Below are positions 12,179-57,861 of a DNA stretch of 64,000 nt, piece by piece. Made by a program: the position numbers and the translations under genes. The notes under the pieces are model-generated. The model worked only from the letters and a program-made list of their open reading frames with translations, was not told the origin of the DNA and made no database searches. Source of the DNA: a virus. The DNA lies in IMG/VR virus record IMGVR_UViG_3300042541_001760, positions 53,689 to 117,688 of that record; one strand, 5' to 3'. Each line of letters begins with the position of its first letter. Position 1 is the first letter of the stretch.

Positions 12179-12210
12179 AATTTTTTATTTAAAAAATAAA
12201 TACTAGTATA

Positions 12211-12242
12211 AAAAAGAAAACCCCTCTTTTGGGGAGGGGTTA
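12211..12242 (-). terminator. Rho-independent terminator (minus strand)
   Basis: CCCCTC-TTTT-GGGGAGGGG hairpin. On the minus strand it is followed by TTTTCTTTTT. Lies between two minus-strand genes. Confidence 0.55.
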
Positions 12243-12269
12243 TCAATTTACTTTTAGTAACAATAAAGT

Positions 12270-13230: not shown

Positions 13231-15273
13231 ATGAATGAGATAATGGACGGTGATGGACCTTCATCAAGAAAAAAAGGCGACAACGATAGTGGTACTCCTG
13301 TACTGGATAACTTCAGTAAAGATTTAAATAAATTGGCTGAGGAAGGTAAATTAGATTCAGTTATTGGTAGAGATAAAGAGATATTAAGAATTGCTCAGAT
13401 ATTATCAAGAAGAAAGAAAAATAATCCTATTATTATTGGAGAACCGGGTTGTGGTAAGACCGCAATTGTTGAGGGATTGGCAATGAAAATCCAACAAGGT
13501 GAATGTCCGAGAAATTTAGCGGATAAGAGAATTGTCCTGTTAGATATGACATCCATTGTTGCGGGAACAAAATACAGAGGTCAGTTTGAGGAAAGAATGA
13601 AAGTGATTATTGAAGAATTACAATCACATCCCAACATTATTATCTTCATAGATGAGATTCACACCATTGTAGGTGCAGGTAATTCATCAGGATCATTGGA
13701 CGCTTCAAACATATTCAAACCAGCATTGGCAAGAGGTGAGATTCAATGTATCGGAGCTACAACACTTGATGAATACCGTAAAAACTTTGAGAAAGACGGA
13801 GCGTTGGAAAGAAGATTCCAAAAAGTGGTGGTTGACCCTTCAACGAAAGAAGAAACTCTACAAATTCTAAAAAACTCAAAAGACAAATACGAGAGTTACC
13901 ATAAAGTTATTTTTAGTGACGAAGTATTAATCACTTGTGTTGATTTGGCGGACAGATATATTACCGATAGAGAGTTTCCCGATAAGGCTTTTGATATTAT
14001 AGATGAAGTTGGGGCAAGAAGTCAGGTGGATATTAAAATGCCTGAAGTTATTGAGAAATTGAAATTGGACGCAATTGATATCAAACAACAAAAGATTGAT
14101 GTTGTAAAGAAACAGAATTACGAACAAGCGGCAGAACTTAGAGATAAGGAGAAAAAAATTCTGAATAAACTTCACGTAGAAAAAATGAAGTTTGAAGAAG
14201 AAATGAATATCAATAAGAAAGAAGTTGAGATTGAATTGGTTTATGAAGTTGTATCCAATATGACAAAAATTCCTGTTGGAAAACTTAACATTGACGATTC
14301 AAAATCATTGGTTGATTTGGAGGTTAATATCGGATCGAAAGTTATTGGTCAATCTGAAGCGGTTTCAAAAATATCAAAAGCAATTAGAAGAAATAGATTA
14401 GGTATTAAAGACCCAAATAGACCCATAGGATCGTTTATCTTCTTAGGATCCACAGGTGTGGGTAAAACACACTTAGCCAAGCAATTGGCGAAAGAGATAT
14501 TCGGTAGTGAAGATTCTTTAATTAGAGTTGATATGTCCGAATATCAAGAAAAACACTCAATCTCTCGTTTAATCGGATCTCCTCCGGGATATGTTGGTTA
14601 TGATGAAGGTGGTCAATTAACTGAACAAGTTAAAAACAAACCATACTCCGTTATTTTATTTGATGAAATTGAAAAGGCAAATAAAGACATATTCTCAACT
14701 TTACTACAGGTATTGGATGATGGTCACCTTACAGATGGATTGGGAAGAAAAATCAATTTCAAAAATTGTCTTATCATTATGACATCAAATATTGGTGTTA
14801 AAAAATTACAAGATTTTGGGGCTGGTGTTGGATTCCAAACTAAGTCCTATGTTGAAGAAGAACAAAAACGAGACATCCTTAAAAAGGAACTTCAAAAATT
14901 CTTCGCACCTGAATTCCTAAACAGAATTGATGATGTGATAATCTTTAACACCCTAAAACAAGAACAAATTAACGAAATCGTTAAGATTGAACTTAATAAG
15001 TTATCATCAAGATTGACTAAAATCAAATACCAATTCAAATTTGAATCTTCGGTAACTGATATGATATCAAAAGTTGGTTTTGATGAAATGTATGGGGCTA
15101 GACCTTTAAAGAGGGCTATCCAAGATAAAATTGAGGATTATATTTCCGAGGAAGTTCTTAGAGGTGAACTTAAAACCGAAACACCTTATGTGGTTACGGC
15201 AGAGAATGACGTTATTATTATAACGGAAGAGAAAAAAGGAAAGAAGGGTAAAACAAAAAAGGAGGTTGAATAA
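13231..15273 (+). CDS. ClpC/ClpB-like double AAA+ chaperone ATPase lacking the N-domain
   Basis: 680 aa. D1 Walker A GEPGCGKTAIVEGLA and Walker B IIFIDEIHTIVGAG. Short UVR-like middle motif KQNYEQAAELRDKEKKI. D2 FLGSTGVGKTHLAKQLA...RVDMSEYQEKHSISRLIGSPPGYVGYDEGGQLTE...LFDEIEKA...LQVLDDGHLTDGLGR. Confidence 0.9.
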   Translation: MNEIMDGDGPSSRKKGDNDSGTPVLDNFSKDLNKLAEEGKLDSVIGRDKEILRIAQILSRRKKNNPIIIGEPGCGKTAIVEGLAMKIQQGECPRNLADKRIVLLDMTSIVAGTKYRGQFEERMKVIIEELQSHPNIIIFIDEIHTIVGAGNSSGSLDASNIFKPALARGEIQCIGATTLDEYRKNFEKDGALERRFQKVVVDPSTKEETLQILKNSKDKYESYHKVIFSDEVLITCVDLADRYITDREFPDKAFDIIDEVGARSQVDIKMPEVIEKLKLDAIDIKQQKIDVVKKQNYEQAAELRDKEKKILNKLHVEKMKFEEEMNINKKEVEIELVYEVVSNMTKIPVGKLNIDDSKSLVDLEVNIGSKVIGQSEAVSKISKAIRRNRLGIKDPNRPIGSFIFLGSTGVGKTHLAKQLAKEIFGSEDSLIRVDMSEYQEKHSISRLIGSPPGYVGYDEGGQLTEQVKNKPYSVILFDEIEKANKDIFSTLLQVLDDGHLTDGLGRKINFKNCLIIMTSNIGVKKLQDFGAGVGFQTKSYVEEEQKRDILKKELQKFFAPEFLNRIDDVIIFNTLKQEQINEIVKIELNKLSSRLTKIKYQFKFESSVTDMISKVGFDEMYGARPLKRAIQDKIEDYISEEVLRGELKTETPYVVTAENDVIIITEEKKGKKGKTKKEVE

Positions 15274-18075: not shown

Positions 18076-18468
18076 GGGTCCAAAATTGGTATCGACTGGC
18101 ATAGTTGGATATTAAGAGCATACCGAGGCTGAGTTAACCTTGTAAAACTGACTTAAACCGATATACGGCAACGTAATCAACAAACTTTCGGCAGTCGGAC
18201 TTGTTCGCACTTCTGAAACCGTAGCAGTAGCCTAAGGCGAATCTACAACGGGTCGGCGTACATACAACCTAGGAACAGAAGTACTTGCAAAAGGTGTGGT
18301 TTCTATCTAAAAAGAAACATGTGGAGGATTAGTTCTCAGTAAACCGAACCACTTTAAAAATAAGGGAATTGTGAAGTTTCGGATTGGTTAGAAAACCAAT
18401 GTCCTATGTATGTAGAACTTAGTAATCAATATGAACAACACGAGGGTTCGAATCCCTCTGGATCCACC
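18076..18468 (+). ncRNA. ssrA: tmRNA (transfer-messenger RNA)
   Basis: The 5' end GGGTCCAAAATTGGTATCGACTGG resembles the E. coli tmRNA 5' end GGGGCUGAUUCUGGAUUCGACGGG. GCATACCGAGG matches the conserved GCAUGCCGAGG. The 3' end carries the T-arm GAGGGTTCGAATCCCTC and the acceptor strand TGGATCC-A-CC, which pairs with the 5' GGGTCCA. That pairing includes a G3:U70 wobble, the alanine identity element. An internal tag frame ends ...SETVAVA-TAA at 18233-18235. The element lies in a 500-nt ORF-free gap and is followed by a T-run. Confidence 0.7.
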
Positions 18469-18503
18469 TCTAAACCTCATCAGAAATGGTGGGGTTTTTT
18501 TAT

Positions 18504-18860: not shown

Positions 18861-19580
18861 TCACACATTGATAATTTTCCATTTCCCTTTGAAGTCCTCA
18901 ACCAAACAAGTTGAATTCTCGCAAAAGTCGCCTGAGTTCATATAATCATCGGTTAATTTTGGGTAATGGATATGTCCACATACGGTAACATCATACCCCT
19001 TTTCTTTTGTTAGTGATTTTGCGTTATCTTCAAAATCAGATACAAAATTAATTACACCTTTAACGCTTTGTTTTACCACATTAGCCAATGAATGGTATGG
19101 TAAATTAAACCATCTCCTTATGTAGTTATATAGGGTGTTGAATCTAATAACAAAATCATACGACCACCCACCGATAACCGCCAACCATCTGGCTTCCATA
19201 ATAACAAAATCCAATACATCCCCGTGATAACAATAATAACTACGACCATCGGCTCCGATATGGACATATTTTCTTACAATCTCTATATTATTTAATGTGA
19301 ATGGTATGAACTCCTTTAGAAAGTCATCGTGATTTCCTCTAATATAAATTACCTTAGTTCCCTTCTCACTTCTTTTCATAAACTTACGAAATATCTTGGA
19401 GCAGTTGTTATTCCATTTTCCCCCACTTTTTAACGCCCATCCATCAATAATATCACCATTTAAAATTAATGTTTCAGATTCGTTCTCTTCCAAAAACTTT
19501 ATAATTTTATTGGTTTGTGATTGTCTTGAACCAAGATGTAGATCACTCATTATTATCGTTCTCCACTTTTTCATTTCCAA
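18861..19580 (-). CDS. Calcineurin-like metallophosphoesterase, LpxH-like (UDP-2,3-diacylglucosamine diphosphatase family)
   Basis: 239 aa. Motifs SDLHLG, LNGDIIDGW, IRGNHDDFL and YHGDVLDF parallel the LpxH motifs DLHL / GDLFEAWIGDD / HGNRDFL / HGDTLCTDD. Confidence 0.65.
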   Translation of the reverse strand: MEMKKWRTIIMSDLHLGSRQSQTNKIIKFLEENESETLILNGDIIDGWALKSGGKWNNNCSKIFRKFMKRSEKGTKVIYIRGNHDDFLKEFIPFTLNNIEIVRKYVHIGADGRSYYCYHGDVLDFVIMEARWLAVIGGWSYDFVIRFNTLYNYIRRWFNLPYHSLANVVKQSVKGVINFVSDFEDNAKSLTKEKGYDVTVCGHIHYPKLTDDYMNSGDFCENSTCLVEDFKGKWKIINV

Positions 19581-20317
19581 TATCCTTTATCGTTTTTGAA
19601 GTATGATTTGTTATTGTGGTTGAAGAATGAGTTAATCATTAATTTTATCATATACATAACACCTTTATTTTTAAATCTTCTTGGTGGTGTATATACTATA
19701 TTATTTATTCTACCGAACTTATTAGGTTTAATTTGTTTTGATAAAATATAATCCTCGGCGACTTTTACGTCCTCATCAAACCCCCCTATTAACTTAAATG
19801 TTTCGGATCTAATCAACATAAAACCACCAAGACAAAATGGTGTAATCCATTTTGAAAGTGATTGTATTACATCAAATGACTTGTATATGTAATTGTATTC
19901 ACCATTGTCAGTCCTGAACTTCGTGGTTACCAAATCTAAGTTATTTTTATGTATTTTTTTTATTGATTGTGTTAGTATTTTTGCATCCAATAGAAACACA
20001 TCAGAATCCATAAATAATACATAGGGGGTTTTTACTATTTTGAATCCTTTATTTCTGGCTATCCCCGGTAATCCACCATCAATTATTATTAAATCAAATA
20101 GGTCTTTATTATGTGTTAATCTATTAATTAATGATTCATAGGTAACCGAATCGTTTGATGAATCACAAACTATAACATTTACTCCGGTTACGTTCCTCTG
20201 ATAATTTAATAAATCTAATGTTTTTAAAATAACATCTTTTTCATTTTTACAAGGAATTACTATTGTGATTAAATTTTTTAAATCCATATTAATCAATTCC
20301 CAATTTTTCCTTAACAT
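19571..20317 (-). CDS. Glycosyltransferase family 2
   Basis: 248 aa. ITIVIPCKNE...VIVCDSSNDS...IIIDGGLPGIARNKG...LFMDSDVFL (GT-A fold with DXD). Overlaps the downstream gene by 10 nt. Confidence 0.75.
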   Translation of the reverse strand: MLRKNWELINMDLKNLITIVIPCKNEKDVILKTLDLLNYQRNVTGVNVIVCDSSNDSVTYESLINRLTHNKDLFDLIIIDGGLPGIARNKGFKIVKTPYVLFMDSDVFLLDAKILTQSIKKIHKNNLDLVTTKFRTDNGEYNYIYKSFDVIQSLSKWITPFCLGGFMLIRSETFKLIGGFDEDVKVAEDYILSKQIKPNKFGRINNIVYTPPRRFKNKGVMYMIKLMINSFFNHNNKSYFKNDKGYWK

Positions 20318-22876: not shown

Positions 22877-24331
22877 ATGAAAATATTAGTATCGGAAAGT
22901 CAATACAAAAGATTAGTTGAGAGTTTATTAGATGAATCCATTTTAATTATAGGTGATAGTCATAGCGTAGATGCAGGATTCACTTACTCAAGTTTATTAA
23001 AGAAAAAATTTTCGGATGTAAAAATATCAGCATCGGTTGGCCAAGGAACATCTTGGATGAAATCAGAATTAGCTAGAGAGTTAACCAAAAAACATTACGA
23101 TAAAGTTATAATTTGGGGTGGGAACAACGATATTGGTTCAACCTCCTCTATATCTGGAGCAATATCAAACATACAACAAATGGTTAATATGGTTAACTCA
23201 CAAGACGGTCAATCATATGTAATCATTGGTTTTGACCAAGAAGTTTTTACCAAAAAAGTAAAAAATAAAATGAGAGAAAGATATATAGATTTGCAAAAAC
23301 AGTTATCTAGTGAGATAAGTAATGCCGTAATAATTCCTGCCTTTGATATTGATAACTCTTACACATCAGATAATGTACACGGAAATAAGAGTGCTCACGA
23401 AAAAGTTTTTAGAACCGTTACGGAGTATCTACAAAAAACAACACAAAAAGAAAAACAAAAAGATGAAAGTAAAAATTCTGAAACGTTAATGTCAAGATTA
23501 GAAGATTATTTGGATTCTGGTTTAGAATTAGTTGCAAGAAAACGAGGTTCAATGGTTTATGAAAAAGAAGTTGAGGATATACAAACCGCTCTCCAATTTT
23601 TAGGGTTTTCTTTACCTAAGTGGGGTGTAGATGGAAAATTTGGGCCAGAAACAAAAAAAGCAACTGAAAACTTCCAAGAAGAAAATGATTTGGAAGTGAC
23701 AGGAATTTTTTCAATCAAAGATTTTGAAAAACTTATTGATGTTTTGGAATCAAAGGGTGTTACTGATGAAGATTTCATGAATGTTCAGAAAAACAAAACA
23801 GAAGAGTTATCATCAGATTTTGAATCGACGGATTTTGAAACAATTGAAAATTCTGGAATTCAAGTTAGTAAATACCCAAATGATATCGAAAATAGATTAC
23901 AGGATATTTTAGGTAAAGAAAAATTCAATATATTTGTTTCCAAGTGTCGAGGAATTGGGTTAGACCCTTTGATTGCAATTAGACAACTTTATACAGAATC
24001 TGTCGGTTTTAGTCCTGACGTTTTGACTTGTAAAAGAAAATCACCTGCGGGAGCCATGGGAATTGCTCAATTTATGCCGGGTACTTGGCCAAGTTATGGT
24101 AAAGGTAGTCCATGCAATGTCGATGACGCATTGGACGCTTATATTAGGTTTATGGATTATTTACTAAAAAGATATGAAGGTCGAGTAGATCTGGCAGTTG
24201 CGTCATATAATAGTGGTCCAAACTTAAATATATATAAGAAAACATATAACTCAAATACACCTTTCGCATCACTTAAAGGTAAAATACCAGGAGAAACATA
24301 TAAATACGCATCCACAATTCTACAAGCATAA
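22877..24331 (+). CDS. Three-domain lysin: SGNH/GDSL esterase, PG-binding domain, lytic transglycosylase (SLT)
   Basis: 484 aa. SGNH blocks IIGDSHS (I), IIWGGNNDIG (III) and DNVHGN (V). PG_binding_1-like IQTALQFLGFSLPKWGVDGKFGPETKKATENFQEEN. SLT motifs LYTESVGF (catalytic Glu), AMGIAQFMPGTW and VASYNSGP. The N-terminus MKILVSESQYKRLVESLLDES is leader type b. Confidence 0.85.
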   Translation: MKILVSESQYKRLVESLLDESILIIGDSHSVDAGFTYSSLLKKKFSDVKISASVGQGTSWMKSELARELTKKHYDKVIIWGGNNDIGSTSSISGAISNIQQMVNMVNSQDGQSYVIIGFDQEVFTKKVKNKMRERYIDLQKQLSSEISNAVIIPAFDIDNSYTSDNVHGNKSAHEKVFRTVTEYLQKTTQKEKQKDESKNSETLMSRLEDYLDSGLELVARKRGSMVYEKEVEDIQTALQFLGFSLPKWGVDGKFGPETKKATENFQEENDLEVTGIFSIKDFEKLIDVLESKGVTDEDFMNVQKNKTEELSSDFESTDFETIENSGIQVSKYPNDIENRLQDILGKEKFNIFVSKCRGIGLDPLIAIRQLYTESVGFSPDVLTCKRKSPAGAMGIAQFMPGTWPSYGKGSPCNVDDALDAYIRFMDYLLKRYEGRVDLAVASYNSGPNLNIYKKTYNSNTPFASLKGKIPGETYKYASTILQA

Positions 24332-24390: not shown

Positions 24391-24702
24391 TCCAATAAAC
24401 CCAAGTGTAATGTTAGTGACACATCACTCTCGATACGTTCGACCACGAGACGGATATTTTAATCGGTTAACTAAAACCAATGATTCTGTCCTTTTTGTTA
24501 ACTCTAAAGGACAACGTGAGTAACATATCATCTCACGTATTAAAGAGTAACGATTTTTTTGTTTTACGGGTATGGGGTGTAAAACTATTTAAACCATCGA
24601 AAAAAATAAAAGACCCCACAGAATAAATTTATTTAATCTTTTAATTTAACCTCCTAAAGAGACGGCTTTATTCTATATTCCGTCAAAAAAACGAGTCACT
24701 TG

Positions 24703-24777
24703 TTGCGGGAGCAGGAATCGAACCTGCGTGGTTGAGCTTATGAGACTCAGCTGGATCCGTCTCCAGTCTACCCCGCC
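24703..24777 (-). tRNA. tRNA-Met (CAT), initiator-like acceptor stem
   Basis: Reverse complement GGCGGGG-TA...CTCATAA...GCAGG-TTCGATT-CCTGC-TCCCGCA-A. The acceptor closely resembles E. coli tRNA-fMet (CGCGGGG/CCCCGCAA), including a 1:72 mismatch. Anticodon loop CTCATAA. The D-arm is irregular, so the call needs tRNAscan. Confidence 0.55.
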
Positions 24778-25794
24778 TTGGCTTACGTTGAGATTACACG
24801 TTTTAGTAGAAATCTTTGATGGGATTATTGTTTCCCCACGTATCCACCATCTTTTGAATGGTAATTTCCAGTGATGGTCTTTTAGGTGTACCACTCCTTG
24901 AATTTCTAACTACTCTCCTACTAATCCGTTCTCTTCAAACTTGCGGTCTGATTAGGTCTTCGACAACCTAGAGATTTTTCATAAGAATACATTCTGACTT
25001 GCGGTCTTCGTGTGCAATGGACATCCCATTACTATGTAATCACCTTTCGTTAGAAACTGATAGACACTTTTGCTTTCTTTTTAAATTTTTAGTAAAAAAA
25101 TCGAGTTATGTGTTGTGGATGTATCAAAGTAGTGGTCTACCGTAAGCTTCGTCGTCTTTTGAACAACAAAATACTAAACTACTTCGTGAAGTGTCCCCAC
25201 CTCCATACTTTAAGATAACTTCGTAACAAGATTTTGGTAAATCTTTGATAAGGACAGTAGCGACACCACTCGTTCTCTATCTTACCTTTCGGTTTTAAGT
25301 TATCTTTCATATTGGAACACGCAATTGTATCGTTGGAGCGATAGTTCTCGCAATATTCCTATGGGTTATTCTTATTGGTGTTCCCACCTCAACTTGACAA
25401 TCCACATTGCCTTGTCACCCAACCACTTTCTCTAAAGCGTCGCCCTCAATACTGAAGGTCAGGTGATATCCCACTTGTGTACTCAAGTTCAGTTACCTGA
25501 ACCGCAAACTCACTTACACTTGTGAATCCACTTTATCCTACTTTCGTAGTTTATTTAACGACCATACACGGCCGACTATCTTTATGTTTTACCGAAATAA
25601 AACAATGGATAATATTTTTTATGTCAAAGAACAATAATCATTTTTACTAATTAGAACTATGCTACTGACGGCTTAATTAGGGGTTCTCACCGCTCTAAAA
25701 TGTCAGGTTCACACCAGACCTCCTTTTCTAATTGTTTGACAAAGGTAGTAAATAAATTTCATTTGTCAAGCAATTTTTTAATTTTTTTTCGTCA

Positions 25795-27489: not shown

Positions 27490-27810
27490 TTATTGTTTAA
27501 ATATGTTTACAAAACCTGTGATGGTTAGTGTTACACCAGCAACAAACATAATATTATTTGGTGTATTTAAAAAAATGTTAGGTTTAACGTAGGTTGAAGT
27601 GTATGAATTTTTAAAAGATGAGTAACTACTTACCCACTCTCCATCCGCCCTATTTTGGAGAATGGCGGCAGTTAATAAACTACCACCACTAACCGTTAGT
27701 ACCAAAGACACATTTTTGTTTTTTGAAACAGTCATATGTTGAGCCTCTGTGTTACCACAAAGACCCAACACTAACAACAAGACAAAAATAACTATTTTAA
27801 AGTTTTTCAT
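27490..27810 (-). CDS. Signal-peptide protein (possible lipoprotein/o-spanin-like)
   Basis: 106 aa. N-terminus MKNFKIVIFVLLLVLGLCGN with a Cys after the hydrophobic core. Confidence 0.4.
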   Translation of the reverse strand: MKNFKIVIFVLLLVLGLCGNTEAQHMTVSKNKNVSLVLTVSGGSLLTAAILQNRADGEWVSSYSSFKNSYTSTYVKPNIFLNTPNNIMFVAGVTLTITGFVNIFKQ

Positions 27811-31573: not shown

Positions 31574-32401
31574 TTAATTAATGTTATACATCATATTTGA
31601 CCCATTACCTGTCATTACACTTGGTAATGTTCCGTTCCACTTATCAAGATACATTTTCTTAAGTAGTTCAGGTGTCAAGTTACGTTGTTGTAGTTCATAA
31701 GCCTTAGCCTCTGATTGCGCCCGAATTACCATTTGTGCGGAGTCACCTCTTGCCACTGCGATTTTTTGGTTAGCCTGAGCAACTGAGATTTTAACCTTAT
31801 TTTCCTCAGTTTGTGCGTTCTGAACCGCCCGATTCTTTAGAGTAATTGACTCAACCAATGCCGGTGGTGGTGTCAGATTACTTGTTAATTGAGCCAATAG
31901 GAATCCTTTTGGTTTAACTTGAGCAATGAATCTCTGTCGTACTGTATTCTCAAAAAGTTGTCGATTCATTAGTAAACTATCGGGAGTAAAATCCCCCGCA
32001 GTTGAACGAAACGCTTCTAACATACAGGTCTTTAAGAATCCATCCTCAATTTCGGGTAGGTCTCGTCGGAACGTCTCAAAGATAGAACTTACCGAATCTG
32101 AAATTACACTATAGTTGATGGCGGGAATTGCAGTAAAGATAGTTCCACCCTTCATAGTTACCTCAATGGTGTCATACTCCTTGTGTTGTACATAAGTCGG
32201 CCACTCATATACTTGACTCATCCACGGAATATAGAATTGCCATCCCGTTACTAATTCTGTTTTACTAACACCTTTTTCAGATGCGGTGTTGTTTACTTTA
32301 ATACCTACGTGACCTGCGTCAATTCGCTCACAAGAAGCGGGAATAAACATTAAAAAGGATCCGAGGACTACGAACAATGCAATTATTTTAATTTTTGACA
32401 T
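31574..32401 (-). CDS. SPFH/band-7 (HflC/prohibitin-like) membrane protein
   Basis: 275 aa. N-terminal TM segment followed by ERIDAGHVGIKV...LVTGWQFYIPW... A C-terminal Ala/Gln-rich helix ISVAQANQKIAVARGDSAQMVIRAQSEAKAYELQ is typical of HflC/HflK. Confidence 0.8.
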   Translation of the reverse strand: MSKIKIIALFVVLGSFLMFIPASCERIDAGHVGIKVNNTASEKGVSKTELVTGWQFYIPWMSQVYEWPTYVQHKEYDTIEVTMKGGTIFTAIPAINYSVISDSVSSIFETFRRDLPEIEDGFLKTCMLEAFRSTAGDFTPDSLLMNRQLFENTVRQRFIAQVKPKGFLLAQLTSNLTPPPALVESITLKNRAVQNAQTEENKVKISVAQANQKIAVARGDSAQMVIRAQSEAKAYELQQRNLTPELLKKMYLDKWNGTLPSVMTGNGSNMMYNIN

Positions 32402-34547: not shown

Positions 34548-34555
34548 TATATTTG
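34548..34555 (+). promoter_or_regulatory. Bacteroidetes -7 promoter consensus TATATTTG
   Basis: Exact TAnnTTTG, 38 nt upstream of ATG 34593. Confidence 0.4.
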
Positions 34556-34592: not shown

Positions 34593-35090
34593 ATGGAAAG
34601 GGTTTTAGTATTAAATTCGGATTATACCCCTCTGAACGTAACTACTATGATCAGAGGATTCAATTTGGTTAATAAAGGTAAGGCGGAGATTCTAAAGGCA
34701 GGAGATAAACCCATATTAACAGGAGAACAAACATTTACAAGACCCTTAATTATAAGGTTATTTACTTATATTAAATACAGAGTTAAAAATCTTAAAGTTA
34801 GTAGAAGTCGTTTATATAAAAGAGATGGTCATAAATGTTCATACTGTGGGTCACCAAAGAATTTAACAATAGACCACGTAATACCAAAATCTAAAGGCGG
34901 AACAAATAGATGGACTAATTTAATTACCTGTTGCGGGTCTTGTAACAGGAAAAAAGGTAACAAAACACCCGAAGAAGCGGGAATGACATTAAACATAATA
35001 CCATATGAGCCTTCATTATTTTCGGAGGTGTTTCACAATTCAATTGAAGCGGTATGGAACGAATTTCAAAAAACAATGGGTTTCAAATGA
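34593..35090 (+). CDS. HNH endonuclease
   Basis: 165 aa. CSYCGSPKNLTIDHVIPKSKGGTNRWTNLITCCGSCNRKKGN (HNH with zinc-binding Cys pairs). Confidence 0.85.
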   Translation: MERVLVLNSDYTPLNVTTMIRGFNLVNKGKAEILKAGDKPILTGEQTFTRPLIIRLFTYIKYRVKNLKVSRSRLYKRDGHKCSYCGSPKNLTIDHVIPKSKGGTNRWTNLITCCGSCNRKKGNKTPEEAGMTLNIIPYEPSLFSEVFHNSIEAVWNEFQKTMGFK

Positions 35091-37630
35091 AAAAACTACT
35101 TATATCACTTAATTTAATATTACTTTCGTTTGTTGGGTTCTCCCAAAATGATTGTATGGGATTTCAAAGTTCGATTGTTAATCCCTTACCTGTTGGTGGG
35201 GGTTATGCTCCCGGAACTGTGGTTCAATATTGTGTTACATACAATAATTGGAATACTAATTTAGGTGCTAATTGGTGTGAAGGATTTAACATTACAATCG
35301 GACCTGGTTGGGTACCGGGTTCAATAACTTCAGTAACCCTACCAAATAACTTAAATGGTGGAAATGGTCAATGGTTGTGGGTTCCGGGGACATTTAATGG
35401 AGATCCAGGTTCATCAGGTGGTGCGGGAAATAACTTTGGACCGGGGTTCTTTTTTGATGAAGATAGTGATGGTATAACTAATAATGATTGGGGTGATTTT
35501 GGAACAGGTCCTTGGACTTTTTGTTTTAGTGTTACGGCAGGCGCGGTGGCAGGAACATCATTATCTTTACAGGTCTCACCCGTTAGTGATGGGTATGCCG
35601 GAAGTTGGGGTAACGCAGGGTGTAACGGAGAATATCAATATCAATTATCACCCGGTAGTACGGTATTAGGTTGTATTGTTCCACCTCTTGTAACACAATC
35701 ATCAGTTACCGACGCTACTTGTAGTGGATTCGCTGATGGATCCTTTAATGTTGTGGGGTCAAATGGGGTCTCTCCTTACACTTATTATGTAAATGGTGTC
35801 GTAACACCAATGCCTGTAAATAATGTCCTTGCGGGGGTTTATGTGGTGTCTTGTGAAGATGATAATGGGTGTGTTAGTTTACCAATCAATGTTACCGTGG
35901 GTGAAAACACAACGGTGGTTAATAATACCTCACAATTACAAGATAATGTTTGTTTTGGGGAATCCAATGGTAGTTTTACAATAAGTTCTGTTAATGGTTT
36001 ATTACCTTACACATATACCTTAAACGGTGGTTCAAATAACACGGGAACATTCACGAACTTAACCGCAGGAAATTATGTTGTAAATGTTTCGGATGATAAT
36101 GGTTGTAATACCAATCACAATGTAACTATAACCGAACCAACCCAACTAACAAACACGATACCCGTTATAACTGACATTGATTGTTTCGGAAATACTAATG
36201 GAACAATATCGGTTACCGCAAATAACGGAACACCACCTTATATATACACCTTAAATGGGGTAACAAATAACACAGGTAGTTTTACAAACTTGGGTGCGGG
36301 TACTTACTCTATGGATATCACCGACGATAACGGTTGTCAGATAATCATCCCAAGTATTGTTGTGTCAGGTCCGGCTCAACCATTACAAGGTAATCTATCT
36401 ACGGTACAACCAACTTGTTTTGGGTATTCAGATGGGTCAATATCGTCAGTTGTTATTGGTGGAACTCCTCCATATACTTATCTTTGGAATAACTTACAAA
36501 TAACGTCACTAATAACCAATTTATCTTCGGGGTGGTACCAAGTTGTGGTAACTGACGATAATCTTTGTCAGACAACATTAACTCATCAATTGGGTCAGCC
36601 TATGAGGATTGATTTAACTGGTATTAATTCAGAGGTTATTTGTTTTGGTGAGGATGTTTACATATCGGTTAGTCAGATAAATGCCGTTACACCATATAAT
36701 ATTGTTTGGGCTAATTCAGTAAACGCAACAACTAACAATAATGATATTTGGGTTGTTCCCCCATCCGATGTAACTTATACATCAACACTAACTGATAATA
36801 ATGGTTGTATGGCAACACATAATTTTAATGTTACTGTAAATCCATTACCTGACCCATCCTTCACCCAAAGTGATATAACAGGATGTAATCCCAAGTGTAT
36901 TGATTTCTCAATTATAAACCCTAACCCTAATTATATTTACGATTGGACTATGGGTACTGGATCTGATCGTAGTGGTGACATCATTAAATATTGTTATCCT
37001 ATGGATGGTACCTATGATGTCAGAGTAATTGCCACCACAAATTTGGGATGTAAGGATACCTTATTTAAACCTAATCATATTATAATTAATCTGTCACCTG
37101 TTGCTCAATTTTCAATATCACCTGAGAGTGTAACTGACATTATGTCACCTTATTTTGAATTTGGTAACCTATCTAAGGACGCGATGTCATATTTTTGGAG
37201 TTTTGACGATTCTCAGACATCAATAGATGAAAATACCGAACATACTTATATTTCTCCTGGTGAGTATTGCGTTAAATTAATTGCCACCACAACTTTTAGT
37301 TCGGGAATACCAACTTGTGTTGATTCTATTATTAATTGTGTCACCATTAATCCATTATCAGTTTTATATATACCAAATGCGTTTACACCAAATGGTGATA
37401 ATACCAATGATTACTTTTATGTTAGTTCGTCAAGGATATATGATTATCATTTAACAATTTATAATAAGTGGGGTACTAAAATATTCCAAACATACGATTT
37501 GGATGCCACTTGGGACGGTACTTATGGTACAAGTATTGTAGAGGATGGTGTGTATTCTTATTTTGTGAGTTATAGGGATGTGGAAATGAGAAAATACGCA
37601 AAAAACGGTACGTTAACTGTATTAAAATAA
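35087..37630 (+). CDS. Secreted cell-surface adhesin-like protein: signal peptide, 4x SprB-type repeats, 2x PKD domains, type-B T9SS C-terminal domain (CHU_C)
   Basis: Start placed at MKKLLISLNLILLSFVGFSQ (signal peptide). The track ORF begins 11 codons earlier. Four repeats of the form NG..PYTYTLNG...TGTFTNL.AGNY...DDNGC. PKD-like segments YDWTMGTGSDRSGDIIKYCYPMDGTYDVRVIATT and FWSFDDSQTS...HTYISPGEYCVKLIATT. The C-terminus IPNAFTPNGDNTNDYFYV is the gliding-motility-associated/T9SS type-B CTD signature. Confidence 0.8.
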   Translation: MKKLLISLNLILLSFVGFSQNDCMGFQSSIVNPLPVGGGYAPGTVVQYCVTYNNWNTNLGANWCEGFNITIGPGWVPGSITSVTLPNNLNGGNGQWLWVPGTFNGDPGSSGGAGNNFGPGFFFDEDSDGITNNDWGDFGTGPWTFCFSVTAGAVAGTSLSLQVSPVSDGYAGSWGNAGCNGEYQYQLSPGSTVLGCIVPPLVTQSSVTDATCSGFADGSFNVVGSNGVSPYTYYVNGVVTPMPVNNVLAGVYVVSCEDDNGCVSLPINVTVGENTTVVNNTSQLQDNVCFGESNGSFTISSVNGLLPYTYTLNGGSNNTGTFTNLTAGNYVVNVSDDNGCNTNHNVTITEPTQLTNTIPVITDIDCFGNTNGTISVTANNGTPPYIYTLNGVTNNTGSFTNLGAGTYSMDITDDNGCQIIIPSIVVSGPAQPLQGNLSTVQPTCFGYSDGSISSVVIGGTPPYTYLWNNLQITSLITNLSSGWYQVVVTDDNLCQTTLTHQLGQPMRIDLTGINSEVICFGEDVYISVSQINAVTPYNIVWANSVNATTNNNDIWVVPPSDVTYTSTLTDNNGCMATHNFNVTVNPLPDPSFTQSDITGCNPKCIDFSIINPNPNYIYDWTMGTGSDRSGDIIKYCYPMDGTYDVRVIATTNLGCKDTLFKPNHIIINLSPVAQFSISPESVTDIMSPYFEFGNLSKDAMSYFWSFDDSQTSIDENTEHTYISPGEYCVKLIATTTFSSGIPTCVDSIINCVTINPLSVLYIPNAFTPNGDNTNDYFYVSSSRIYDYHLTIYNKWGTKIFQTYDLDATWDGTYGTSIVEDGVYSYFVSYRDVEMRKYAKNGTLTVLK

Positions 37631-37723
37631 AAGGGTATCTCTCGATACCCTTTTATTAGATTTGGAACACCCCCCTTTCTTAGATGTTTATACTAAACAG
37701 ACCTCAAGTCCGAAAAGTCACAT

Positions 37724-40160: not shown

Positions 40161-42350
40161 TTATTTCATTATATCCCATATATTATCTTTATATTGATAA
40201 CCATGACCATCAGAATCCTCACCATATGGTATATTGTCATAAACCTGATGAGTCCCCTCCTCATATGTTTTACCTATAGTTGATAAATATGATTTGAAAT
40301 CGTCTACGTCACCTGGTTTTTTAGGAATTGTAGGTGTTGTTTGATTATTCGATTCTTCCTCTTTTTTCACCCACCTAAGATTCTCATATTTATATACAAC
40401 TCCTTCACTATCCATCGCGTAAGGGGGATTGCCATTCATCATTGGGAAATATGAGTCTTCTCCATAACTTCTTGGAGGATCCATACTTGCTAAGTAATCA
40501 AAGAATTCTTTTAATATCTTTTCGTTAACCTTCATTTCAGCTTCGGTCCAATTTTCACTCCAAGATTTTCTCATTGATTCGTTAGCCTTTGAAAGTTTTT
40601 CAGCGGCCTCTTTTAATTTCTCCTCTCCCTGAGCAATCATCTCGTCAATTTGTTTTTCAAAAGTGGATTTTTTATTCAAATCTAGATTATCTATTACTCC
40701 CACAACTAAATTTGAAATATCACCTATCATACCTGGGCTTAATTTCCAAATTTCCGTTGCGTTCTTTGCCTTTGTATTTTCGTCAGACACATCAGGTAAG
40801 TTTTCTGACCCAAACGGATTAATTTGTCTCCACCAACCACCGAAAAAACCGCCAGTTTCTTGAGGTATATTTGATGGAGAATAATCCATTGAGTAATCCG
40901 CAACAAGTCTGTATAATCTACTATTATTAATTTTTTTACAAGCTTCTGAATTAGTATCATTCGATTTAATACACGCTTGAACATCAGGATTCATCCACAC
41001 ATAAGCGGCTGCATTTTTTACCGTTATAAGAAAACCTACATAAACGTGCCACTTAAAGAAATTCGTAATTAAATCTCTATAATATACTGTTTTAGCTCCC
41101 CTTAATCCATATTTAATAATAATATCTTTATAATATTCATTTGTCATAGTTGGAAATCCACGTCTACTACCCGTTTGAATATTCTTCAAAAAACTTGTTT
41201 TTGCTTCTGGAACCGTTAATATTTTTTTTCGCGAAACCCAATTAACGATTTTATAACTTCGTATAATATCTGATTCAAACATGAGTTTCAGATCTGTTGT
41301 TAAAGATCCCCAAAATCTTTTAAAGACTGGCATGTACTCAGCGACTTTACCAAAAGTTTTATAAAATTCCCATTCACTATCACCTGATTTAATTGATTGC
41401 CAAGCATCCCTCCAATCTTTATTGACTTTTGCAACATCATCAAAATATTTTCTGATATAAACAAAATAATTGGTGCTATTTCTATATAACCATTCCAATT
41501 CTTTCTTTAATCTATCTTCTAGTTTGGCTTGAAGTTCTACTTCTTTACCTTCTTTTTTATATGACTCTAATTGTTTGGCTATTCGTTGTATTTTTTGAAT
41601 TTTAGATTTTTTTGGCGCCCACATGTTCTTTAATTTATCAAAAAAATCATCTAAAAAGTTAGGGTCTAATAATTTGGGTAAATTACTTGGTAAAGGAACA
41701 CTATCCCAATTCGAAATATCCCAAATTTTCTTATACTCCGTTTCGGGTATATTATCAACAACATCATCAATAACCGTTTCAGGTACCACATCATCTACCA
41801 CATCATCCGCAGGTTTTGGTTTAGGTTCTATAACATCATCTGCATCTTTTCTTATTTTATCTAATTTAGTACGTAAAGAATCTCTCAATTTTTTTTTAGC
41901 TAATTCATCCATAATATCATCGCCTGTGTTTGGTGGAAAATCATCCGCCATCATTTTCAATATCGATTCATCATCGGATCCTCTATCAATAGCAGCTCTC
42001 ATAAAATCATCTGTATCCTTAGCCACCGCAATATCATCAATTTGTTTTCGTACTTGGTCTGTGAATTTACTACGCATCAGAATATCTATCTCATTTCTCA
42101 TTAAAACATCCGACTTTTTCCAAAAATCGTCTATTATCTCCGCTTTCGCTTTTGGGGTACTAGCATTTTCTAATTTATTAACAAATTCTTCTGCGGCTTG
42201 TTTTACACCCCTTTTTTCTCCCGCTACGATTATCCCTTGTATAAAATCATCTATAAAACTTTGTTCCATCAATAGGTTTTTTTTCACACCCATAATTTCC
42301 CTTATTCTATTTAATTCCTCATTTAGATATTTTTTTTGATTTTTCATCAT
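40161..42350 (-). CDS. Large leader-family protein (N-terminus ...YLNEELNRIREIMG)
   Basis: 729 aa. The N-terminal segment matches the MNLQENIQRIQEVMG leader pattern. The body is acidic and helical. The antisense ORF 41623-42339 is a low-complexity artefact. Confidence 0.55.
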   Translation of the reverse strand: MMKNQKKYLNEELNRIREIMGVKKNLLMEQSFIDDFIQGIIVAGEKRGVKQAAEEFVNKLENASTPKAKAEIIDDFWKKSDVLMRNEIDILMRSKFTDQVRKQIDDIAVAKDTDDFMRAAIDRGSDDESILKMMADDFPPNTGDDIMDELAKKKLRDSLRTKLDKIRKDADDVIEPKPKPADDVVDDVVPETVIDDVVDNIPETEYKKIWDISNWDSVPLPSNLPKLLDPNFLDDFFDKLKNMWAPKKSKIQKIQRIAKQLESYKKEGKEVELQAKLEDRLKKELEWLYRNSTNYFVYIRKYFDDVAKVNKDWRDAWQSIKSGDSEWEFYKTFGKVAEYMPVFKRFWGSLTTDLKLMFESDIIRSYKIVNWVSRKKILTVPEAKTSFLKNIQTGSRRGFPTMTNEYYKDIIIKYGLRGAKTVYYRDLITNFFKWHVYVGFLITVKNAAAYVWMNPDVQACIKSNDTNSEACKKINNSRLYRLVADYSMDYSPSNIPQETGGFFGGWWRQINPFGSENLPDVSDENTKAKNATEIWKLSPGMIGDISNLVVGVIDNLDLNKKSTFEKQIDEMIAQGEEKLKEAAEKLSKANESMRKSWSENWTEAEMKVNEKILKEFFDYLASMDPPRSYGEDSYFPMMNGNPPYAMDSEGVVYKYENLRWVKKEEESNNQTTPTIPKKPGDVDDFKSYLSTIGKTYEEGTHQVYDNIPYGEDSDGHGYQYKDNIWDIMK

Positions 42351-43767
42351 ATAGTTTTTTTAATTTTTTAATTGTTTCGGAACCCACAATTCCGTCAAAT
42401 TTTATTAAATCATTATCCACTTGGAAATCTATTACGGCATCAAACGTGGATTGACCGAAATCTCCGTCTACGCCATCGCTGTTTTTTCCTGAAGTCCCTA
42501 AATTATAATCTAACGCCACTAACATTTTTTGTATTTCTTTAACAAGATTATTTTTTTGATTTTTTTGTAAAGTATATTTTCCGTCAATTATCCCTTGTAA
42601 TGTCATAGGTTCTGATTTTTTTAAATCAGTGCCAGAAACTCCAAATTTACTCTCCAATCTTTTCAAATACTCAGAATAATCACTTTTTATTTCTAAATCA
42701 AAACCTTTCTCTTCCGCATGTGCGAATAATTCTTCATCAGTCATGTTTTCTTTTAGAAGATACTCTTTGATTTCTTTTTGTCCTTCCTCATTAACATTAC
42801 CATCTTTATCAAATAATTTTTGATATATTGCCCATAAACCCTCTTTAAGTTGGTCGTCCAATGTTCCCGCATATAACGAATCCATTATTTTGGAAAAGGA
42901 TGCCTTATCTCTCATTTTTTTTCTGTAGGATTCTGGCGTTGTGTATAATGTCCAAAATTTGTCAACTGTAATTGTGACACCCAAAACTTTTATGACAGTA
43001 GAACCTGTCCATTTAAATAATTTCATTAAAAATCCTAAAATGGAGCTCAAACTCAATCCCATAAGTTTAGCTCTAAATACAATAAGAGCATTTTTAGTGA
43101 ATTTTTTTAATAAAGTAGGTGCCATTTCCTCAACACCATCCCTAAATGCTAAAAGTAATCTTTCTTGTGCCTCAGTTAAACCTTGTTTCCCTGACTTGTA
43201 TGATTTTATCCATTTAGTTAAAGTTTCTGGGGAGGCCTTCTCAAGTAATTTAATAACATCATCACCGTACTTCAAAAACTTAGGTGATTTTTTTAGAATT
43301 GTTACTAATTCACCTCCAGGTATTAATTGTAAAGCCAACATCATAGTTCCCATGTAAGGGTCCTTCTCCCCGAAGTAAACAATAGCATCCGCAACCCCTA
43401 CGGCCAATGATGCCGAAATCATAACACCACCAATAACTTGTGTAAACCCTAATGGAATTAGACTTATCAAACCCCCACCAACAAGTAAACCTAATTCTAT
43501 GTACGAAGAAGTTTCATGATCCCAACCTTGTGCCGTTGTTGGATCTGAATAATTACCTTTTTTTCCTCTTTCTTGTGTCTGAATAACATATTGACTATTT
43601 GGACCAACCCAATCTGATTTTGATCCACAACATTTTTCAGAATATTTACCATCAGGACACTTACAACCTAATTCACTATCCTCACTTATATAGTTCTCCA
43701 AAAGTGTTTTATTTGAGTTATACCCAATTAGGAATTTTATTCTATTAAAATTTTCTTGATCTTCCAT
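42319..43767 (-). CDS. Leader-family membrane protein with C-terminal PG-binding domain
   Basis: 482 aa. N-terminus MEDQENFNRIKFLIG. Hydrophobic segments LGLLVGGGLISLIPLGFTQVIGGVMISASLAVGVADAIVYF. C-terminal PG_binding_1-like IQKMLVALDYNLGTSGKNSDGVDGDFGQSTFDAVIDFQ. Confidence 0.6.
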   Translation of the reverse strand: MEDQENFNRIKFLIGYNSNKTLLENYISEDSELGCKCPDGKYSEKCCGSKSDWVGPNSQYVIQTQERGKKGNYSDPTTAQGWDHETSSYIELGLLVGGGLISLIPLGFTQVIGGVMISASLAVGVADAIVYFGEKDPYMGTMMLALQLIPGGELVTILKKSPKFLKYGDDVIKLLEKASPETLTKWIKSYKSGKQGLTEAQERLLLAFRDGVEEMAPTLLKKFTKNALIVFRAKLMGLSLSSILGFLMKLFKWTGSTVIKVLGVTITVDKFWTLYTTPESYRKKMRDKASFSKIMDSLYAGTLDDQLKEGLWAIYQKLFDKDGNVNEEGQKEIKEYLLKENMTDEELFAHAEEKGFDLEIKSDYSEYLKRLESKFGVSGTDLKKSEPMTLQGIIDGKYTLQKNQKNNLVKEIQKMLVALDYNLGTSGKNSDGVDGDFGQSTFDAVIDFQVDNDLIKFDGIVGSETIKKLKKLYDEKSKKISK

Positions 43768-44927: not shown

Positions 44928-45434
44928 ATGAAAAATATAATATTACCCCTATTTTGTTGTCTATTATTATGTTCTTGTTTAGAATATGGTCAACCCCCAT
45001 CTCTTAATCTCCAAGGAGAATATGTTATTGATATGATAACAGTTTCAAAGATAGATAATACTGTTGAGTTAGGTGATTCTGTGTATTATCCTGGTACAAC
45101 ATACATTAACCCCAACGATACATACCCAATGGACACAATTCGTTTGGGTATTACCAAGTGGCATTTTGATTACAATGTGTTGTCTATGTCACCCATTGAA
45201 AATGGTACAGGTGGATATACTTGGCAAAGACAATATTATTATGATGTGATTAACTATAACTCTGATTGGGATATGGGTAACATATCATTCAATTGTGAGG
45301 GATCAAGACGAGTATTTAAAATTGTTAATAAGGCGACAGAGAGTTTGACATTACGATCTTCGGGTCAATGGATTTATGGTAATCACGGACCTAATGTGTC
45401 GATTACTTTAAAATTTACAAGAATAGGTCCTTGA
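44928..45434 (+). CDS. Putative lipoprotein
   Basis: 168 aa. The signal peptide ends LFCCLLLCSCLEYG. Confidence 0.5.
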   Translation: MKNIILPLFCCLLLCSCLEYGQPPSLNLQGEYVIDMITVSKIDNTVELGDSVYYPGTTYINPNDTYPMDTIRLGITKWHFDYNVLSMSPIENGTGGYTWQRQYYYDVINYNSDWDMGNISFNCEGSRRVFKIVNKATESLTLRSSGQWIYGNHGPNVSITLKFTRIGP

Positions 45435-45500: not shown

Positions 45501-46013
45501 ATGAAAACTCTATTATCATTCATTTTTATTTTTTTTGTTGGTATTTCTTTCTCACAAGATGTTAAACTTATTGAGTTGGAGGTTAATAAATTGTACGAAC
45601 AATATTCTAAAAAGAGAAATCACGTAATTAAAACGAGATTGGAACTTGATACTCTTGCTTTTTGCCAGTTAAGGTATTTAGAAACATTAACTGATGTAAA
45701 TGATATAACTCACAAAAATCCTGACCCTAAATTTAAAACTTTTAATACGAGAGTTAATAATTATTTCATAAATCTTATGGGTGAATATTTTGCTGAAGTT
45801 ATCTCAGGGTCTTGGAAAAGTAACGGTAATTATATTGACGAAAAAAGTGTCGCTCAAGTGTTATTTAACGCCTTACTTGGATCTCCCGCACATAAAAAAA
45901 TATTGGATAGTAGAAAATTTATAAATTACACATTTAAATCATGTAGACTTGAGAATGGTGGTTTTATTTTAATTGGTGTTTTCTCAAGTAATGAACTATT
46001 CTTTTGGAGATAA
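45501..46013 (+). CDS. Secreted hypothetical protein
   Basis: 170 aa. Signal peptide MKTLLSFIFIFFVGISFSQ. TATATTTG box at 45473-45480. Confidence 0.5.
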   Translation: MKTLLSFIFIFFVGISFSQDVKLIELEVNKLYEQYSKKRNHVIKTRLELDTLAFCQLRYLETLTDVNDITHKNPDPKFKTFNTRVNNYFINLMGEYFAEVISGSWKSNGNYIDEKSVAQVLFNALLGSPAHKKILDSRKFINYTFKSCRLENGGFILIGVFSSNELFFWR

Positions 46014-57126: not shown

Positions 57127-57861
57127 ATGAGAAAAATATTTATTTCTGCGGGTCACTCCAACAAATCCGGAAAAGACCAAGGAGCTCAAGGTAATGGTTA
57201 TATTGAAGGTCAATTAGCCGTTGAGTTAAGAAACTTATTGGTTTCTGAATTAAAAAGTTTAGGTATTACCCCGGTTGGGGATGCTGATTCAAATGTCCTT
57301 AAAGATAGTATAACATTCTTTAAAAACCTTACGGCTAAAGATAGTATTGTCTTAGACATACATTGGAATGCAGGTCCACCATCAGCAACAGGTGTTGAGG
57401 TATTAATACCATCCGAAAATAGTTCTGTTGAACGGAATTTGGCAAAGGATTTAGCGGATGAGATATCAAACACATTATCAATCCCTTTAAGAGGATCTCA
57501 CGCAGGACTTGCCGGTGTTAAAACTGAAGCCGAATCACATCACGGAAGATTGGGATGGATGAGATTAACGGGTGAAAATGTATTACTTGAAATGTGTTTT
57601 ATATCAAGTAAATCTGATATGGAATCATATCAGAAGAACAAATCAACTATTGCTAAAAAGATTGCGAAAGTATTGTATGATTATGCTAATGATAATGGAA
57701 TACCACAAATCATAGGAACGACCAAAACTTATAAAGTTAAGAGTGGTGATACCTTATCAAAAATCGCAGTTGATAATAAGACATCGGTTAGTGAGATAAA
57801 GAGATTAAACAATTTAACATCAGACACTATAAAGATTAACCAAGTATTAATAGTTAACTAA
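57127..57861 (+). CDS. N-acetylmuramoyl-L-alanine amidase (Amidase_3-type) with C-terminal LysM: endolysin candidate
   Basis: 244 aa. FISAGHSNKSGKDQGAQG...DSIVLDIHWNAG...GVEVLI matches the AmiC-type zinc amidase layout. C-terminal LysM YKVKSGDTLSKIAVDNKTSVSEIKRLNNL. Confidence 0.85.
   Translation: MRKIFISAGHSNKSGKDQGAQGNGYIEGQLAVELRNLLVSELKSLGITPVGDADSNVLKDSITFFKNLTAKDSIVLDIHWNAGPPSATGVEVLIPSENSSVERNLAKDLADEISNTLSIPLRGSHAGLAGVKTEAESHHGRLGWMRLTGENVLLEMCFISSKSDMESYQKNKSTIAKKIAKVLYDYANDNGIPQIIGTTKTYKVKSGDTLSKIAVDNKTSVSEIKRLNNLTSDTIKINQVLIVN

Follow-up and report, generated by a model that had tools for sequence, protein, structure and literature searches.

We analysed a 64,000-nucleotide (nt) stretch of viral DNA (positions 53,689 to 117,688 of the IMG/VR record IMGVR_UViG_3300042541_001760), referred to here as the window. 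On its plus strand, overlapping the end of an HNH endonuclease gene, lies an open reading frame (ORF) for an adhesin-like protein of 847 amino acids (aa), which carries the domains of a type-B cargo of the Bacteroidota type IX secretion machinery (T9SS). The features of the locus, including the C-terminal sorting domain (CTD) of the cargo, are as follows.

34548-34555 (+), putative promoter TATATTTG, matching the Bacteroidota -7 consensus TAnnTTTG, 38 nt 5' of the HNH start
34593-35090 (+), HNH endonuclease gene, 165 aa (PF14279, E 1.2e-16; PF01844, E 4e-15)
35087-37630 (+), adhesin-like T9SS type-B cargo gene, 847 aa plus stop
35087-35143 (+), Sec (SPI-type) signal peptide, residues 1-19, predicted cleavage between GFS and Q
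35144-35686 (+), N-terminal head, an all-beta sandwich, residues 20-200, 180 aa, no Pfam family
35687-36613 (+), four tandem SprB repeats, residues 201-277, 278-354, 355-432 and 433-509
36614-36856 (+), fifth Ig-like beta-sandwich module, residues 510-590, no confident Pfam call
36857-37351 (+), two PKD domains, residues ~591-668 and 669-755
37352-37627 (+), type-B T9SS CTD, residues 756-847, including FTPNGDNTNDYF
37626-37657 (+), intrinsic terminator hairpin with a 14-bp stem, a UCUC loop and a U-tract, beginning at the stop codon

Domain organization of the predicted cargo gene and its putative transcription unit

All the elements named in the first-pass annotation of this DNA were confirmed where it had placed them. 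It had described four SprB-like repeats, and the Pfam family PF13573 (SprB) matched in four stretches (E 1.6e-27; 95 bits, cut-off 28), each repeat having the motif CxGxxDG/NG (at residues 212, 289, 366, and 444) and a conserved Cys pair. The two PKD domains it had proposed were recovered as two stretches of PF18911 (PKD_4; E 2.1e-16, 60.2 bits) and were also matched by PF00801 (PKD; E 7e-12, 45.6 bits); their sequence matches in the PDB were the PKD domains of ColH. The C-terminal type-B signature, TPNGDNTNDYFYV, was found at residues 767-779. The profile hidden Markov model (HMM) searches suggested as checks on this domain both scored above the curated cut-offs, PF13585 (CHU_C) at residues 762-844 of 847 (E 4.7e-17; 62.3 bits, cut-off 27) and NCBIfam TIGR04131 ("T9SS type B sorting domain") with 43.3 bits (cut-off 35), as did the PF13573 search. 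By HMM membership, the adhesin is a PKD-domain protein and a substrate with a T9SS type-B CTD.

An AlphaFold2 model of the adhesin was an all-beta string of beads with a mean predicted local distance difference test (pLDDT) score of 82.7. In this model, the module at residues 510-590 was all-beta with a pLDDT of ~85-90, and it contains the conserved cysteines C519 and C574. The head modelled alone gave a pLDDT of 83 and a predicted template modelling score (pTM) of 0.82, and it resembled the beta-sandwiches of adhesins and pilins.

The overlap of the 5' end of the gene with the HNH stop codon, which had also been pointed out earlier, was seen as an ATGA at 35087-35090; the adhesin ATG at 35087 overlaps the TGA (35088-35090) of the upstream gene in the sequence caaATGAaaa. 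A second possible start, in frame at 35054 (MERIS...), would lengthen the n-region of the signal peptide by 11 residues. This upstream ATG is the sole ATG start in the homologues with 55-60% identity, in which the residue aligned with Met1 (residue 12 from the MERIS start) is I, V, or L. Either start is possible, as a workable signal peptide is predicted from both.

The signal peptide, claimed to be cleavable, was judged present by inspection, by a simple heuristic, and by its conservation in homologues. In the N-terminus, MKKLLISLNLILLSFVGFS followed by QND, a charged n-region precedes a hydrophobic core of 15 residues; the residues at -3 and -1 are small, and the one at +1 is Gln. All the full-length family members have a hydrophobic leader and an S/A/T/G-Q junction followed by (N/Q)DCMG; three N-terminally truncated entries were not scorable for this junction. 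The predicted cleavage junction between S19 and Q20 places the adhesin under the Q-rule, which describes Gln at +1 of signal-peptidase I substrates in Bacteroidetes (PMC5837995). A stabilising role has been assigned to this Gln (PMC10653852), and the rule was noted earlier in Porphyromonas phage proteins (PMC10367356). The mature adhesin has 24 cysteines, 21 of which are invariant across 33 family sequences, and this fits an exported protein that folds outside the cytoplasm.

Between ~27 and 44 kb of the window, no genes other than HNH and the adhesin are on the plus strand, their neighbours being on the minus strand, and we infer that the two are co-transcribed as a short plus-strand, moron-like unit. 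The terminator hairpin (-18 kcal/mol, z = -5.9) is bidirectional and also serves the convergent minus-strand gene. A hairpin is found at the equivalent position in the relatives L003, L006, and L011; as the stem sequences differ and the position is kept, the structure rather than the sequence is conserved. The promoter motif TAnnTTTG matched at 126 sites in the window against 97 ± 8.5 expected, which is a mild enrichment, and the TATATTTG element is identical in the 84% relative (L011) and not identical in L003 or L006 (55-60%). A scan for sigma-70-type promoters gave matches not above the shuffled expectation. With regard to the features of a moron, the terminator is strong and conserved, the promoter is a consensus match only, and the unit is not sporadic among the syntenic relatives, being conserved there.

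The HNH gene is 73-85% identical in four relatives (L003, L005, L006, and L011), each time immediately 5' of the adhesin. It belongs to a common phage HNH family and is ~40-44% identical to the HNH genes of cyanophages. We considered HNH as a functional partner of the adhesin and rejected it as unsupported, because the HNH family is common in phages and the adhesin occurs without HNH in L001 and L008.

An intergenic block (TAGATTTGGAACACCCCC...TTAGATGTTTATAC) stands at 37657-37700 (+), right after the terminator, as a single copy in the window. It starts with TAnnTTTG and is almost unchanged between the window, L003, and L006, even though the flanking genes share just 55-60% identity. It could be a promoter, a 3' untranslated region element, or a small RNA.

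Family, selection, and genomic context

A search of 5.8 billion proteins identified a tight group of ~850-aa proteins, which covered the full query with 50-88% identity. Below this group were cellular Bacteroidia proteins of ~1,470 aa, with 33-37% identity over three quarters of the query. The contexts of seven members of the tight group were all phage-like DNA. P0004 and P0013 (55-60%) are on contigs (22-54 kb) syntenic with the window, where a 353-aa RNA ligase and a metallophosphatase are followed by a 166-aa ORF, the 165-aa HNH, the adhesin, and large minus-strand ORFs. In P0001 (88%) and P0002 (84%), the adhesin follows an HNH gene with a 4-nt overlap; P0003 (79%) is on a 479,895-bp contig, P0029 adjoins further small CHU_C and PKD genes, and P0058 is close to an IF3 gene, which is a hallmark of huge phages. 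The HNH-adhesin unit was found in at least five diverged phage-like contigs; counted with its terminator, the unit recurs in five.

Selection was estimated as dN/dS (omega) by the Nei-Gojobori method in a comparison with the 84% relative. The value was 0.15 for the whole gene, 0.15 for the N-domain, 0.10 for the SprB region, 0.18 for the PKD region, and 0.19 for the CTD, the comparison sequence for the CTD being L010. The value for the CTD indicates that this domain is under purifying selection within the phage lineage. The gene is neither freshly captured nor decaying. The adhesin belongs to an old, maintained phage gene family and is neither a recent capture from the host nor a stray piece of host DNA.

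Two copies of the gene are damaged. In L001 (a 480-kb contig), the frame is disrupted at an A-run/homopolymer (12100-12300), which splits the gene into ORFs of 748 aa and 120 aa, the latter being CHU_C. In L014 (a 128-kb IMG/VR contig), a deletion of ~45 codons and a frameshift (12000-12400) removed the first half of the CTD. Both lesions are confined to the CTD region, leaving ~745 codons intact in each. Close relatives of the damaged copies (e.g., P0025) are intact, and 30 of the 33 aligned members have a complete CTD. Faulty assembly or recent decay may account for the lesions, which leave room for a CTD-independent function. A programmed frameshift at the L001 CTD junction was rejected, because no canonical slippery site was found and the L014 lesion is a deletion.

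The head is the best conserved part of the protein, being 83% identical to that of L003, whereas the remainder is ~50% identical. The same holds for cellular relatives of 1,470 aa in metagenome-assembled genomes (MAGs) of freshwater Bacteroidota (L020, L021, and L022; P0034-P0054), in which the head is 55-59% identical and the remainder 33-41%. These cellular proteins have a signal peptide, head, SprB repeats, PKD domains, and a type-B CTD, as in the phage adhesin, and they are also orphans, with no sprF-like gene following. They are ~620 residues longer, mostly owing to extra SprB-type repeats, and unlike the phage gene, they are located in cellular neighbourhoods (BatD, TPR/SH3, and NADH dehydrogenase). 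Eleven SprB stretches were matched by Pfam in each of P0131 and P0135 (~1,470-1,590 aa). Among 185,579 species-representative genomes, the best relative of the adhesin reached 44% identity over its best local segment and is encoded beside exonuclease VII in a Chitinophaga-labelled MAG; the others had 28-37%. To judge from this pattern of identities, the phage protein has the look of an orphan type-B adhesin of the host that was shortened and kept its head. When 1.84 billion representatives were searched exhaustively with HMMER, the head was recovered in 272 clusters. Ten of the head clusters were scanned, of which seven had a CHU_C or Por_Secre_tail CTD, one had a T9SS-associated GBD, one had CUB only, and one had no Pfam match.

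The window belongs to a phage of Bacteroidota, which is probably a huge phage. Its other assigned features are listed below.

1706-3568, portal gene (phrog_213, E 1e-62)
3632-5404, TerL, T4-type large terminase (phrog_2, E 4e-39)
13231-15273 (+), Lon-like ATP-dependent protease (phrog_4871, E 1e-239), an accessory gene typical of large phages
19571-20317 (-), family-2 glycosyltransferase, likewise an accessory gene typical of large phages
31574-32401 (-), SPFH/Band-7, likewise an accessory gene typical of large phages
18076-18469 (+), transfer-messenger RNA (tmRNA; RF00023, 83 bits, full model length), missed by ARAGORN
24785-25186 (-), GOLLD RNA (RF02032, 305.9 bits, model 1-416 of 416), adjoining tRNA-Met at 24702-24777 (-)
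9576-11903 (-), peptidoglycan-binding/hydrolase gene with M23 and PG_binding_1
22877-24331 (+), peptidoglycan-binding/hydrolase gene with GDSL, PG_binding_1 and SLT
42319-43767 (-), peptidoglycan-binding gene with PG_binding_1 alone
57127-57861 (+), peptidoglycan-binding/hydrolase gene with Amidase_3 and LysM

TerL is 27-29% identical to its best database relatives, which are from a Flavobacterium myophage and an uncultured phage of 484 kb. The window contains seven dispersed tRNA genes and an Rnl-type RNA ligase, and most of the other ORFs have no family. The four cell-wall genes within 64 kb constitute an unusually rich set. No nucleotide match was found by megablast for the 12 kb around the adhesin among 50,697 phage records, and thus the phage is new at the nucleotide level. 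The adhesin is in a region of tRNA and auxiliary genes, ~30 kb from the portal and terminase genes. Its minus-strand neighbours (591 aa and 729 aa) had no Pfam, PHROG, or phage tblastn match, and thus they do not help in deciding whether the region is structural.

Downstream of the adhesin, the terminator is followed by a convergent, unrelated gene that is not sprF-like, which makes the adhesin an orphan type-B substrate. No PorP/SprF shuttle and no type-A CTD protein were retrieved by Pfam from 40 window ORFs of ~150 aa or more. Our own CTD HMM, applied to the six-frame ORFs of the window, detected the type-B CTD of the adhesin and no other.

Several other ORFs in the window have export-type leaders. 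By the same heuristic, a leader with Gln at +1 was found in the ORFs at 27490-27810 (-) and 45501-46013 (+), and a lipobox-like LLLCSC is part of the leader in the ORF at 44928-45434 (+); the phage may have a small set of proteins directed to the envelope. The divergent neighbour of the HNH gene (33896-34399/34414, -; 167-172 aa) has a leader ending in SFAPIG followed by QNEPC. With a length of 166 aa and no family match, this ORF is also conserved in L003, L006, and L007, which are syntenic phage contigs, and its product may be a second exported protein of the adhesin region.

Proposed export route and alternative explanations

Proteins with a type-B CTD pass the outer membrane via the T9SS; specific PorP/SprF-like shuttles, usually encoded just downstream, collect them, and conserved CTD motifs are needed for secretion (PMC12618676). 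In Flavobacterium johnsoniae, nine of the 12 type-B substrates have a downstream shuttle gene (PMC12618676). Type-B proteins remain at the surface, bound to a PorP-like partner (PMC9143113). Against this background, we consider it probable that the window encodes a phage-borne, host-style adhesin that is exported by Sec and the T9SS and displayed on the infected cell. The earlier proposal of a host-type T9SS type-B cargo encoded by a phage is supported by the HMM scores above threshold, the phage context, the omega of the CTD, the leader-Gln junction, and the cysteines, and from such features we infer the export route, surface anchoring, and biological role of the adhesin. Observed directly are the domain content, the phage setting, the conservation with its purifying selection, the lack of a shuttle gene among the scanned ORFs, and the terminator.

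The proposed mechanism is as follows. The adhesin gene would be transcribed with the upstream HNH gene, in a unit closed by its own terminator. The product would reach the periplasm via Sec, where signal peptidase I would cut before Gln20, Gln20 would be cyclised to pyroglutamate, as in Bacteroidota, and the cysteines would form disulfides. The 92-residue type-B CTD would deliver the protein to the host T9SS translocon, and a shuttle would collect it and hold it on the outer membrane, as in SprB/SprF and PG1035/PorP. As no PorP/SprF gene was found in the scanned ORFs of the window, this shuttle would have to be that of the host. A ~800-residue string of about eight beta-sandwich beads would project the head from the surface of the infected cell. 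The phage would thereby change the display or stickiness of the cell, by the addition of the adhesin or by outcompeting host type-B adhesins for the shuttle, and shuttle competition would reduce further phage adsorption to the infected cell and its debris. Resistance of Flavobacterium to phages has been traced to genes for gliding and the T9SS (10.1101/2020.10.02.323337; PMC9804748); as the T9SS-delivered surface is thus where phages of this phylum adsorb, added adhesion or shuttle competition is favoured as the role.

Several points weigh against display of the adhesin on the infected cell. The phage CTD shares just 30-41% identity with those of the closest cellular relatives that were recovered, and type-B CTDs are recognised rather specifically by their cognate shuttles (PMC12618676); for these two reasons, no cognate host shuttle or host can be named. 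The damage in L001 and L014 indicates that the CTD is not indispensable in every lineage, unless the lesions are assembly errors. Export was predicted from the sequence, with the signal peptide judged by inspection and a simple heuristic, and the search for a shuttle covered 64 kb of a genome that is probably much larger. The promoter of the HNH-adhesin unit is a weak and unproven assignment.

Four other explanations were weighed against surface display. The CTD might itself be the effector, occupying a PorP/SprF-like shuttle of the host and displacing receptor or gliding adhesins, which would lead to superinfection exclusion or motility arrest with the passenger being secondary. The dependence of type-B substrates on limiting, specific shuttles (PMC12618676) would allow such interference, as would the many small type-B CTD proteins in phage contigs, including a 112-aa bare signal peptide and CTD on a 476-kb contig, and the resistance data from Flavobacterium cited above (10.1101/2020.10.02.323337; PMC9804748) point in the same direction. 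The head and not the CTD is the most conserved part, however, which indicates that the passenger matters, and interference as the primary function is unlikely. Alternatively, the protein might act in the periplasm or otherwise independently of the T9SS after Sec export, e.g., by binding an envelope component from inside, with a dispensable CTD. The confinement of the L001 (frameshift) and L014 (deletion) lesions to the CTD, with ~745 codons intact, is in line with this function. We regard it as quite improbable, given the complete CTD in 30 of 33 members, the intact relatives of the damaged copies, and the CTD omega of 0.19, and the lesions themselves may be assembly errors or recent decay.

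The first-pass annotation had offered two roles, remodelling of the cell surface and decoration of the virion in the manner of T4 Hoc; the former is favoured here, and the latter is very unlikely. As a decoration protein, the adhesin would form an Ig-like/PKD array on the capsid or tail, comparable to T4 Hoc or to BACON-repeat proteins in crAss-like phages, and would help virions to stick to surfaces or mucus, its signal peptide and CTD being vestigial or used otherwise. Phage particles commonly carry Ig-like and PKD arrays, the large minus-strand neighbours are uncharacterised and could be structural, and the fold matches in BFVD include a "highly immunogenic outer capsid protein" and a "virion structural protein". 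These BFVD matches are, however, to generic Ig-arrays with template modelling (TM) scores of at most 0.2. The leader with its Q-rule junction and the CTD are kept under purifying selection, and the 21 invariant cysteines point to an oxidising compartment. Sec/T9SS export would also take the protein out of the cytoplasm, where heads assemble. The gene, probably co-transcribed with HNH, lies among tRNAs, ~30 kb from the portal and TerL genes, and thus far from the structural genes, and the adhesin matches no phage structural family. With regard to the features of a Hoc-like decoration protein, the adhesin has no PHROG match, has export signals at both ends, and is located in a tRNA/auxiliary region. 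The remaining explanation is that the locus is cellular sequence or a recently captured, functionless passenger. All its domains are typical of cellular Bacteroidota, and cellular relatives of 1,470 aa exist. This explanation is largely refuted and extremely improbable, because phage hallmark genes flank the adhesin on the same contig, the HNH-adhesin unit is kept in at least five diverged phage-like contigs, the best cellular relative has at most 44% identity (local segment) against 48-88% in the phage group, and the omega of 0.15 excludes neutral decay.

Known systems and type-B domains in other phages

T4 Hoc has tandem Ig-like/PKD-type domains in a phage protein, as does the adhesin. Hoc is not known to carry a signal peptide or a tag for secretion, and its C-terminal domain attaches it to the capsid; the adhesin, in contrast, has export signals at both ends. 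Among solved structures, the best analogue is GhpA, a grappling-hook protein from the predatory Aureispira (PDB 9flp and 9fly; Foldseek E 6e-23), which is an Ig-like bead chain of a Bacteroidota surface filament. With 15-19% identity and TM scores of 0.36-0.56 on fragments, the resemblance is limited to the repeats, and unlike the adhesin, GhpA exceeds 5,000 aa and forms heptameric hooks. SprB is thousands of residues long, whereas the adhesin has 847 aa and four repeats, with HNH upstream and no sprF or sprCDBF operon. SprB-type repeats and a type-B CTD are shared with SprB, which works with SprF (PMC9143113), and PorP-like anchoring is expected for the adhesin. The adhesin is not an SprB orthologue, and nothing indicates propulsion along a gliding track.

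A further parallel is given by the orphans of F. johnsoniae (Fjoh_1123, Fjoh_1720, Fjoh_4934), which share the orphan shuttle Fjoh_1677 (PMC12618676) and, like the adhesin, have no sprF-like gene downstream. The shuttle of the adhesin would be in another genome, that of the host, and the likeness lies in the CTD type and the gene arrangement. Phage proteins with a T9SS sorting domain and a presumed hijack of host secretion were described in Cryophage (PMC7468147) and in crAss-like cluster 2 phages (PMC6949934). The Cryophage cargo comprises three type-A sorting-domain proteins (an endoglucanase, a GH39, and a PA14 protein) in hypervariable islands, for which the authors proposed cell-surface alteration or superinfection-related competition and noted a "unique occurrence" (PMC7468147). 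The adhesin differs in its type-B domain, a kind that is anchored by a shuttle rather than handled by PorV, in its non-enzymatic Ig-like domains, in the purifying selection, and in being carried by what is probably a huge phage. Phage T9SS cargo of type A is thus already known, and a conserved, adhesin-like, probably shuttle-dependent cargo of type B extends the idea.

Using a single peptide pattern, we found 353 type-B CTD stretches in IMG/VR contigs. Of 20 sampled ORFs, ~17 had a leader and Gln, two were 5'-truncated, and one was without, and all eight that were checked passed PF13585. A detectable relative of the adhesin CTD was present in three of 50,697 GenBank phage records, two of which were megaphages of 635-642 kb with three places each. 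In BFVD/UniProt, proteins of uncultured Caudovirales were automatically named "SprB repeat" and "Gliding motility-associated, C-terminal domain", and our literature search retrieved no dedicated report on type-B, SprB-repeat, or "gliding motility-associated C-terminal domain" proteins in phages. A family of ~190-200 aa consisting of a signal peptide, a small domain, and a CTD was observed in seven viral contigs (L032, L033, L036, L040, L043, L072, and L104). The 112-aa ORF of the 476,236-bp IMG/VR contig (L101:2932-3267) consists of a signal peptide ending in NLGRS before Q and a type-B CTD (PF13585, E 2.4e-14, residues 27-110), and this bare tag could be a decoy for a host shuttle.

It is a speculative and rather unlikely extension that large and huge phages of Bacteroidota carry a repertoire of orphan type-B CTD proteins, from minis of ~110-200 aa to shortened host adhesins, each tuned to the shuttle of its host and used to take over, jam, or re-equip the T9SS/gliding surface. 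If this is true, receptor displacement, superinfection exclusion, or altered adhesion and motility could result, and the CTD sequence would be a host-range marker.

In Bacteroidota, which are major degraders in lakes, oceans, and guts, surface proteins delivered by the T9SS control how cells adhere, glide, degrade polymers, and adsorb phages. If the adhesin is merely an inert passenger, little follows. If the proposed display is true, phages re-dress the infected cell with the host's own machine, and the question of specificity becomes which host shuttle accepts the phage CTD. The CTD and the head could help to predict the hosts of uncultured huge phages, and the type-B CTD genes, which number in the hundreds in viral contigs, point to a class of phage accessory genes that has been overlooked.

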